A stretch of DNA of 64,000 nt from positions 39,415-103,414 of IMG/VR virus record IMGVR_UViG_3300037391_000017, one strand, 5' to 3'. The stretch is from a virus. Every line of letters begins with the position of its first letter. Position 1 is the stretch's first letter. The translations under genes were made by a program, and so were the position numbers. This document shows, piece by piece, positions 63,678 through 63,914 of this stretch. The notes beneath the pieces are model-generated. The model saw only the letters and a list, made by a program, of their open reading frames with translations. It made no database searches and was not told the DNA's origin.

Positions 63678-63686
63678 TGGTATTAT
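63678..63686 (+). promoter_or_regulatory. Extended -10 promoter (TGGTATTAT), leaderless start at ATG 63694
   Basis: Motif followed by 7 nt and then ATG, with no RBS. Confidence 0.65.
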
Positions 63687-63693
63687 AGTAGAC

Positions 63694-63786
63694 ATGAAGC
63701 AGACACTCCAAACTCGAACTACAACTACCCAACGAATTACAACGCGGGTGCGGGTCGGTGTGTCTGAAGGGATGGACCCAGTTTAA
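63694..63786 (+). CDS. Thr-rich leader peptide (30 aa) of a putative attenuator
   Basis: MKQTLQTRTTTTQRITTRVRVGVSEGMDPV*; 8 Thr in the first 17 codons. Confidence 0.7.
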   Translation: MKQTLQTRTTTTQRITTRVRVGVSEGMDPV

Positions 63787-63810
63787 GTCCTCCTAAATCA
63801 GAAACTTCCG

Positions 63811-63840
63811 AGCCGCCCAAACGGGCGGCTTTTGTATTTT
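63811..63840 (+). terminator. Intrinsic terminator/attenuator upstream of tRNA-Ile
   Basis: AGCCGCCC-AAAC-GGGCGGCT followed by TTTGTATTTT. Confidence 0.85.
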
Positions 63841-63914
63841 GGCGGGTAGCTCAGTGGTAGAGCCCAGTCCTGATAAGACTGTGGTCGTGGGTTCGACCCC
63901 CACCCCGCCAACCA
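63840..63914 (+). tRNA. tRNA-Ile(GAT)
   Basis: Canonical cloverleaf; CAGTC-CTGATAA-GACTG; ends ACCA. Confidence 0.93.

Follow-up and report, generated by a model that had tools for sequence, protein, structure and literature searches.

The 64,000-nucleotide stretch of DNA analysed here (the window) is the final 64 kb of the IMG/VR record IMGVR_UViG_3300037391_000017, which measures 103,414 bp, is estimated to be about one third complete and comes from a giant soil phage; the record contains 22 transfer RNA (tRNA) genes and a permuted transfer-messenger RNA (tmRNA) gene. The element in question is a short open reading frame (ORF) followed by an intrinsic terminator, placed directly ahead of a tRNA-Ile gene, which we read as a candidate leader-peptide attenuator of a tRNA array. 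The site is 86 nt short of the contig end (window 64000), and the features found at the locus are listed below.

63637..63677, plus strand: AT-rich upstream promoter element, overlapping the stop codon (63642-44) of the preceding gene, which encodes a 100-aa protein
63678..63686, plus strand: extended -10 promoter element, TGGTATTAT
63694..63786, plus strand: leader ORF of 30 codons, with its ATG at 63694 and the stop codon TAA at 63784-63786
63700..63716, plus strand: region 1, the 5' strand of the 1:2 hairpin, codons 3-8, taken from the minimum free energy fold
63747..63767, plus strand: region 2, partner of either region 1 or region 3, codons 18-25
63769..63794, plus strand: small hairpin with the stop codon in its loop, -8.1 kcal/mol
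63796..63816, plus strand: region 3, made of the conserved motif AATCAGAAACTTCCGAG and the 5' arm of the terminator, pairing with region 2 in the antiterminator
63810..63839, plus strand: intrinsic terminator (helix 3:4), with a 9-bp GC-rich stem, a tetraloop and a T-tract; stem 63810-63831, -17.9 kcal/mol
63840..63914, plus strand: tRNA-Ile(GAT), first gene of the putatively regulated unit, called by ARAGORN and by Rfam (67.4 bits)
63933..64000, plus strand: start of a small protein gene with a strong AAGGAGG ribosome-binding site, cut by the contig end

The leader, its helices and its conservation

The promoter belongs to a type that recurs in this phage and in its relatives. The exact 9-mer TGGTATTAT is present in 6 copies in the 103-kb genome, where less than one would be expected, and the more general form TGGTAT[TA]AT occurs 32 times across four related genomes, often after a common AT-rich stretch; a AAAATAATT-type stretch is found upstream of other TGGTAT[TA]AT promoters, both in this genome and in the relatives. 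At 16 of these 32 promoters an ATG lies 4-9 nt downstream of the -10 element, compared with 8.6% of random positions (P = 1.5e-9), and 10 of these 16 ATGs of the leaderless type open ORFs of 90-277 aa. Leaderless messenger RNAs (mRNAs) seem to be usual in this phage group, which makes a leaderless start of the leader ORF plausible, and since its ATG sits 7 nt past the -10 element the leader ORF is itself probably leaderless. Many protein genes of the group show an ATG 4-7 nt past a TGGTAT[TA]AT promoter, as at window 52699 on the minus strand (ORF 51866-52699), and these genes are probably translated from leaderless mRNAs.

The leader ORF contains 8 Thr codons (ACA and ACT three times each, ACC and ACG once), 4 Arg codons (CGA and CGG twice each), 3 Gln codons and 1 Ile codon, and its first 17 codons are mostly those for Thr, in all four ACN forms, for Gln (CAA, CAG) and for Ile (ATT). 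At the other end of the element the T-tract of the terminator, which runs to 63839, abuts the first position of tRNA-Ile at 63840, leaving no room for a promoter belonging to the tRNA gene alone.

In the leader RNA, three helices compete for the same segments. Helix 1:2 joins CAGACAC (63700-06) to GTGTCTG (63760-66) and is worth -23.2 kcal/mol when taken alone. Helix 2:3 joins 63750-58 to 63808-16 with one G-G mismatch and is extended by the pairing of TCTGA (63763-67) with TCAGA (63798-63802), which encloses a GGAC/GTCC hairpin; this composite structure reaches -32.1 kcal/mol. Helix 3:4 is the terminator, and the ground state of the whole leader, at -51.5 kcal/mol (z = -3.7 versus shuffles), combines 1:2, the stop-codon hairpin and 3:4. 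These results agree closely with the original prediction, made from the bare letters of the window, which had described an extended -10 (here TGGTATTAT at 63678-63686, over-represented in the genome), a 30-codon ORF with 8 Thr codons of four types and CGA and CGG Arg codons (an exact match), a strong terminator directly before tRNA-Ile and the pairings 1:2, 2:3 with one mismatch and 3:4, all of them found in place. The alternative folds, once computed, bore out the mutual exclusion of the three helices, and the thrL/trpL-type geometry that had been recognized, with exclusive 1:2, 2:3 and 3:4 helices and a terminator, is real.

The effect of translation on folding was modelled by representing the ribosome as a 28-nt unpaired block, and its dependence on ribosome position was followed in a transcript ending before the 3' arm of the terminator. 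In this truncated transcript, a ribosome on codons 9-14 leaves the terminator 5' arm engaged in the antiterminator with a probability (P) of about 0.9, and a ribosome over codons 17-25, that is over region 2, with P of only 0.2-0.4. The same profile, high and then lower, is found in all the terminator-bearing leaders scanned (n = 18), with a sharp drop in the Ile class and a shallower one in several leaders of the Val, Tyr and Ser classes. In 17 of these 18 leaders the distance between the stop codon and the terminator stem is 22-28 nt, and in the remaining one it is 32 nt.

Relatives of the leader were traced through the 100-aa protein encoded upstream, for which no Pfam match was obtained, and others were collected by pattern scans of viral and metagenome contigs. 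Nine distinct orthologues were aligned, and an ORF of 29-32 codons is kept in all of them. In codons 1-17 the differences from the window fall mostly on third positions (for example, counts of 1/2/6, 2/2/7 and 0/0/3 at the first, second and third position) and, because such changes dominate, the leader ORF behaves in these alignments as a translated stretch and unlike an untranslated RNA. For the 1:2 stem and the terminator taken together, 92.6% of the alignment cells are paired, versus 32-46% when the partners are slid, and the covariation score is 0.165 versus 0.067 for shuffled alignments, with none of 500 shuffles scoring as high. The terminator is conserved and shows CG to AU covariation in diverged orthologues, and compensatory changes are also present in the 1:2 stem; the stop-codon hairpin is found in the same place in the orthologues with a different sequence, and the motif AATCAGAAACTTCCGAG is common to the paralogous leaders of other arrays.

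Similarity searches placed the leader in no described family. With Rfam, at the gathering score and at E <= 10, no family was found for the leader and only weak matches driven by the terminator appeared; among the leader families the best were Phe_leader (21.6 bits, threshold 55) and Leu_leader (12.7 bits, threshold 50), and Thr_leader gave no match. The T-box model had no match in 63400-64000 even at E <= 10. An exact 31-mer of region 2 was not matched in viral contigs, a 17-mer motif scan returned 22 loci of which 18 were an unrelated protein gene, and a blastn search of 63340-64000 versus cultured phages matched in the tRNA part only.

Leader codons and array anticodons

The composition of the array that the leader would control is visible in three larger relatives, IMGVR_UViG_3300038465_000091 (223 kb), IMGVR_UViG_3300032770_000001 (455 kb) and IMGVR_UViG_3300033405_000001 (463 kb), in all of which the same leader heads two Ile-GAT genes, Thr-CGT, Thr-GGT and Thr-TGT, and then two or three tRNA-Gln genes, with Gln-TTG present twice. 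The order of the 223-kb relative (100-aa protein, leader, tRNA-Ile, small Cys-rich protein) agrees with that of the window as far as its sequence goes, and the homologue of the gene that begins at 63933 lies, in the relatives, between the two tRNA-Ile genes of the array. The codons ACA, ACT, ACC, ACG, CAA, CAG and ATT of the window leader are cognate for every anticodon of the relatives' array. The set sensed would be Thr, Gln and Ile, namely the anticodons of the array itself, and not Thr and Arg. The original prediction had proposed an attenuator of the tRNA unit sensing Thr and Arg: the attenuator and its Thr component find support in the orthologues, the arrays and the paralogues, whereas the Arg component does not, and of the tRNA-Thr or tRNA-Arg genes for which it had advised a look downstream the relatives' array supplies three tRNA-Thr genes and leaves the CGA Arg codons unmatched.

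In the 455-kb and 463-kb relatives the terminator of the Thr-class leader is separated from the first tRNA-Ile by one or two small protein genes, one of them encoding the small Cys-rich protein whose homologue begins at window 63933; genes in this position would be co-regulated with the tRNAs.

The matching of codons to anticodons extends to other tRNA arrays. The related phages of 223-463 kb carry 4-6 codon-matched leaders each, with a common architecture consisting of a promoter, an ORF of 23-48 codons, a common module around the motif AATCAGAGACTTCCGAG and then a terminator, followed 10-25 nt later by the first tRNA or by a short protein gene. The array of Val, Ala, Gly, Asp, Glu and Cys tRNAs is preceded by a leader with codons for Ala, Val, Gly, Asp, Glu and Cys, and this genome has its own leader of the Val/Ala/Gly class, at 35378-35247 of the record, outside the window. 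Likewise, the Tyr/Leu array follows a Leu/Tyr leader with CTA, CTG, TTG, CTT/CTC and TAT/TAC; the Ser array, with tRNA-Leu(TAA) as its last gene, follows a run of six kinds of Ser codon together with one conserved TTA; the His/Arg/Asn/Lys/Gln(/Trp) array follows a leader carrying those codons; and the Pro/Met/Phe array follows a Pro/Met/Phe leader. On average, 0.93-0.97 of the anticodons of an array have a cognate codon in its own leader. When leaders and arrays were permuted within each of three genomes, the true pairing was the single best of 24, 720 and 720 permutations, with the same result whether the score was codon enrichment relative to the codon usage of the genome or the share of anticodons represented. 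Furthermore, nhmmer searches of these genomes with 14 leaders gave matches only at sites preceding tRNA arrays.

The pairing of region 2 with region 3 changes in the same coordinated manner. This can be seen by eye in the Val leaders, where one phage combines GTCCTCGG with CCGAGGAC and another GCCCTCGG with CCGAGGGC. In a swap test on 22 leaders, cognate region 2 : region 3 duplexes exceeded non-cognate ones in strength by 4.8 kcal/mol on average (P = 2e-4); the failures were the Ser leader of the 455-kb phage and array C of the phage Tunturi_5, in which the terminators had been mis-called. Region 2 co-varies with the terminator arm.

Tunturi_5, a cultured phage of Tunturiibacter (PP885688.1, 308.7 kb), is the phage matched by the tRNA part of the window, and its host is an acidobacterium of tundra soil. 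It has three tRNA arrays with compositions unlike those of the window group, each behind a short ORF and a terminator-like hairpin with a T-run; the three leader regions are found at about 231,140-231,320, 239,200-239,400 and 251,560-251,800 of PP885688.1. An ORF with Leu, Cys, Ser and Tyr codons stands ahead of Leu, Cys, Tyr and Ser tRNAs; a second one, with Gln, His, Thr, Phe, Ala, Pro, Gly and Asn codons, ahead of exactly those tRNAs; and a third, annotated as the hypothetical gp308, with Lys, Asp, Ile, Arg, Gly, Val, Trp, Glu and Met codons, ahead of the corresponding tRNAs. The fractions of cognate codons are 0.45, 0.67 and 0.69 on the diagonal versus 0.06-0.35 off the diagonal, and each leader covers 0.89-1.00 of the anticodons of its own array. 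Cys is grouped with Leu, Ser and Tyr in Tunturi_5 and with Val, Ala and Gly in the window group, and the Cys codons are distributed among the leaders accordingly; what a leader contains therefore follows what its array contains, and Tunturi_5 can be regarded as an independent replicate of the leader-array matching. The tRNAs are unannotated in the Tunturi_5 record, and the paper on this phage counts 43 tRNAs and mentions neither leaders nor attenuation.

Arg codons deserve separate consideration. CGA accounts for 0.45% of the codons in long ORFs versus 16 of 546 leader codons, an excess of about six-fold, and it occupies conserved positions in the Ile/Thr, Tyr/Leu, Pro and His/Arg leader classes (63715-17 and 63733-35 in the window). 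Among these four CGA-bearing classes, a cognate tRNA-Arg is present in the array of the His/Arg class only. CGA may serve for pacing, or for the cross-sensing of tRNA-Arg(ACG).

A probable codon-matched attenuator and its alternatives

The comparative evidence, namely the anatomy of the element, its conservation, the codon-to-anticodon matching and the co-variation of the alternative helices, makes it highly probable, in our judgement, that the element is a functional, codon-matched leader-peptide transcription attenuator of a tRNA array. That the ORF is translated, where its transcript starts, which sign the switch has and what triggers it are inferences; the trigger may be starvation, cleavage of tRNA in the host or simply the demand for tRNA. 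Transcription would start about 7 nt past the extended -10, at or beside the ATG, producing a leaderless mRNA whose 30-codon ORF, rich in Thr, Gln and Ile, would be translated by the ribosome. Scarcity of any cognate aminoacyl-tRNA would stall the ribosome at codons 4-16 and mask region 1; region 2 would then pair with region 3, blocking the terminator, and the polymerase would enter tRNA-Ile and the rest of the array. With fast decoding the ribosome would reach region 2 (codons 18-25), allowing 3:4 to form and transcription to stop where the tRNA begins, at about 63836-63840, and without translation helix 1:2 would form first, resulting again in termination. The predicted outcome is a closed-loop, demand-driven supply of phage tRNAs.

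Several observations weigh against this reading. At equilibrium the full-length RNA forms the terminator wherever the ribosome is placed, which rules out a purely thermodynamic switch; since the terminator is always favoured at equilibrium the switch must be kinetic, as it is in the trp attenuator, whose terminator is likewise favoured at equilibrium. In the folding model a ribosome at the stop codon lets 2:3 re-form (P about 0.66), and the leaders of the Pro/Met/Phe class are codon-matched and lack a canonical terminator, so that termination may not be the sole output. These three points favour an explanation in which the leader is translated and controls the array by another route or with another sign, such as read-through promoted by efficient translation, an influence of ribosome traffic on Rho access or on the ribonuclease processing or stability of the precursor, or a terminator that does no more than fix a low level of read-through. 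We hold this to be unlikely, given that in the terminator-bearing leaders region 2 lies within the 3' half of the ORF and co-varies with the terminator arm, that a ribosome over region 2 lowers the pairing of the terminator 5' arm (an effect that is clear in the Ile class and weaker in several others) and that the stop codon, 22-32 nt ahead of the stem, is too distant for a terminating ribosome to melt it. The other adverse points concern the comparisons themselves. Because the contig ends, tRNA-Ile is the only gene of the array seen after the leader in this genome, and the Thr and Gln genes are assigned to it by synteny with the relatives; the 4 Arg codons of the window leader are without a matching tRNA in the array; some rows of the raw match matrix contain ties, because the GC-rich 3' halves of all the leaders encode Gly, Val and Ala; and the orthologues are related, so that neither the covariation counts nor the cross-genome permutation tests are independent and the covariation figures overstate independence.

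Two further explanations do without sensing by a translated ORF. The reshuffled arrays of Tunturi_5, with their correspondingly reshuffled ORFs, and the permutation tests (1/24, 1/720 and 1/720) bear directly on the view that the ORF is an ordinary small protein gene, the hairpin a constitutive terminator with leaky read-through into the tRNAs, and the codon likeness a product of chance or composition. Small ORFs are certainly plentiful in phage genomes, and the Gly/Val-rich C-terminal halves, which are alike among leaders, could be a peptide motif; the N-terminal halves, however, are low-complexity runs that are entirely class-specific while the RNA module is common, and leaders of this kind are found only upstream of tRNA arrays, which leaves this view very little probability. 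Equally improbable, in our view, is an explanation that treats the ORF as incidental and takes the unit running from the promoter to the terminator for an independent trans-acting small RNA of about 145 nt, or for an untranslated structured 5' leader. The ORF is open in nine orthologues with third-position variation, its composition shifts in step with the downstream tRNAs, which an untranslated RNA fails to explain, and no Rfam family is reached at threshold, although the unit does carry a promoter and a terminator of its own and folds well as RNA (z = -3.7), a relative with just 65% identity in the flanking protein matches its first 47 nt exactly, and the unit has a weak, sub-threshold likeness in Rfam to a terminator-bearing small RNA (22 bits versus a gathering score of 50).

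We find it fairly probable that in giant phages of soil bacteria each array is governed by a multi-codon 'roster' leader probing almost all of its anticodons, in such a way that the shortage of any one tRNA, caused by demand, host shut-off or host anticodon nucleases, would open the array together with the small protein genes embedded in it, with CGA serving as a shared pacing or sensing element. As part of the same proposal, leaders and arrays would co-evolve, so that the transfer of a tRNA between arrays would be accompanied by that of its codon between the leaders, as for Cys in the comparison with Tunturi_5.

As read here, the element is an extension of leader-peptide attenuation to the multi-codon feedback control of tRNA supply. 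Multivalent attenuators are known from enterobacteria, in which the thr leader contains Thr and Ile codons and the ilvGMEDA leader Ile, Leu and Val codons, beside those of trp, his, leu and phe, and the leader of Escherichia coli pheST resembles the attenuators of synthetase genes. In common with the thr and ilv attenuators, the phage element has a short promoter-proximal ORF with codons for more than one amino acid, exclusive 1:2, 2:3 and 3:4 helices and an intrinsic terminator, with stalling predicted to favour the antiterminator through a kinetic switch. The thr and ilv attenuators control biosynthetic enzymes, whereas the phage leader would control tRNA genes and sense the products of its own operon; unlike them, it samples nearly every anticodon of the array with all synonymous codon types, is probably leaderless and has 4-6 paralogous copies per phage genome. 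No sequence relationship with the enterobacterial leaders is apparent, the Rfam leader models remaining far below threshold.

Closer in the mode of translation are the leaderless leader-peptide attenuators reported upstream of leuS, trpS, alaS and thrS in Streptomyces lividans (PMC8079986). These actinobacterial leaders share with the phage element a leaderless ORF followed by hairpins or a terminator, and the regulation of a translation component by the decoding of cognate codons; however, they are cellular, respond to a single amino acid and precede the gene of a synthetase protein, whereas the phage leaders stand before a tRNA array with interspersed small protein genes and carry codons for 3-8 amino acids. 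The trn operon of Anabaena sp. PCC 7120, a long tRNA array acquired by horizontal transfer, is induced when translation is under stress. Its repressor, TrcR, binds repeats over the -10 box and the start site, and the papers describing the operon mention no attenuation, leader peptide or terminator (PMC8421152, PMC10272220). In both cases an accessory tRNA array would be silent until translation is impaired, but the signal in Anabaena is global and not codon-specific. With the T-box, finally, the phage leader would share the choice between terminator and antiterminator set by the charging of specific tRNAs, as well as translation-related targets; the T-box, however, involves neither a ribosome nor an ORF, uncharged tRNA being bound directly, and the phage leader gave no T-box match. 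In the full-text literature searched, which left most subscription journals outside, no published account of the attenuation of tRNA genes was found, in line with the original prediction, which knew of no attenuators described for phage tRNA genes.

Why phages possess tRNA genes, and when these are used, is an old question, and the explanations put forward to date involve codon usage, host range, host shut-off or escape from tRNA-cleaving defences. If the attenuation model is true, the phage would gauge the decoding capacity of the cell codon by codon and make tRNAs on demand, so that feedback would replace a static 'codon compensation', and the model would predict which stress induces which array. 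It would also mean that leader-peptide attenuation reaches RNA genes whose products are the very molecules sensed, and that the leaders are natural multi-input sensors of tRNA availability. Since the cultured Tunturi_5 has the same design, the idea is directly testable.

Other tRNA-related features of the window

A permuted, two-piece tmRNA gene lies at 54198-54598 of the window (ARAGORN; Rfam 52.9 bits). A 'tRNA-Thr' called by ARAGORN at 54218-54294 falls within this gene, is uncalled by Rfam and is probably the tRNA-like domain of the tmRNA; it was not counted as a Thr gene.

Two tRNAs with the anticodon CTA, expected to read amber codons and labelled Pyl by ARAGORN, are located at 60876-60951 and 60969-61047, and the relatives have 2-3 tRNAs with this anticodon at the syntenic place. 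A crude test for genome-wide TAG recoding over the 103 kb showed no clear signal: 22 of 116 long ORFs terminate in TAG, and the gains from TAG read-through are no larger than those from TAA. Within 58504-58954 an ATG at 58532 is preceded by an AGGAG site and by a promoter of the type found at the leader, and is followed after 9 codons by a TAG and then by a frame open to 58954; no Pfam match was obtained for 58532-58951 read through its TAG.

Two tRNA-like genes with an encoded CCA end, uncalled by ARAGORN and Rfam, are present at 59613-59690 and 59840-59900. In the former a long stem capped by a GCAA-type loop takes the place of the anticodon loop, and a similar tRNA-like gene in the 455-kb relative has, according to ARAGORN, a four-letter anticodon.

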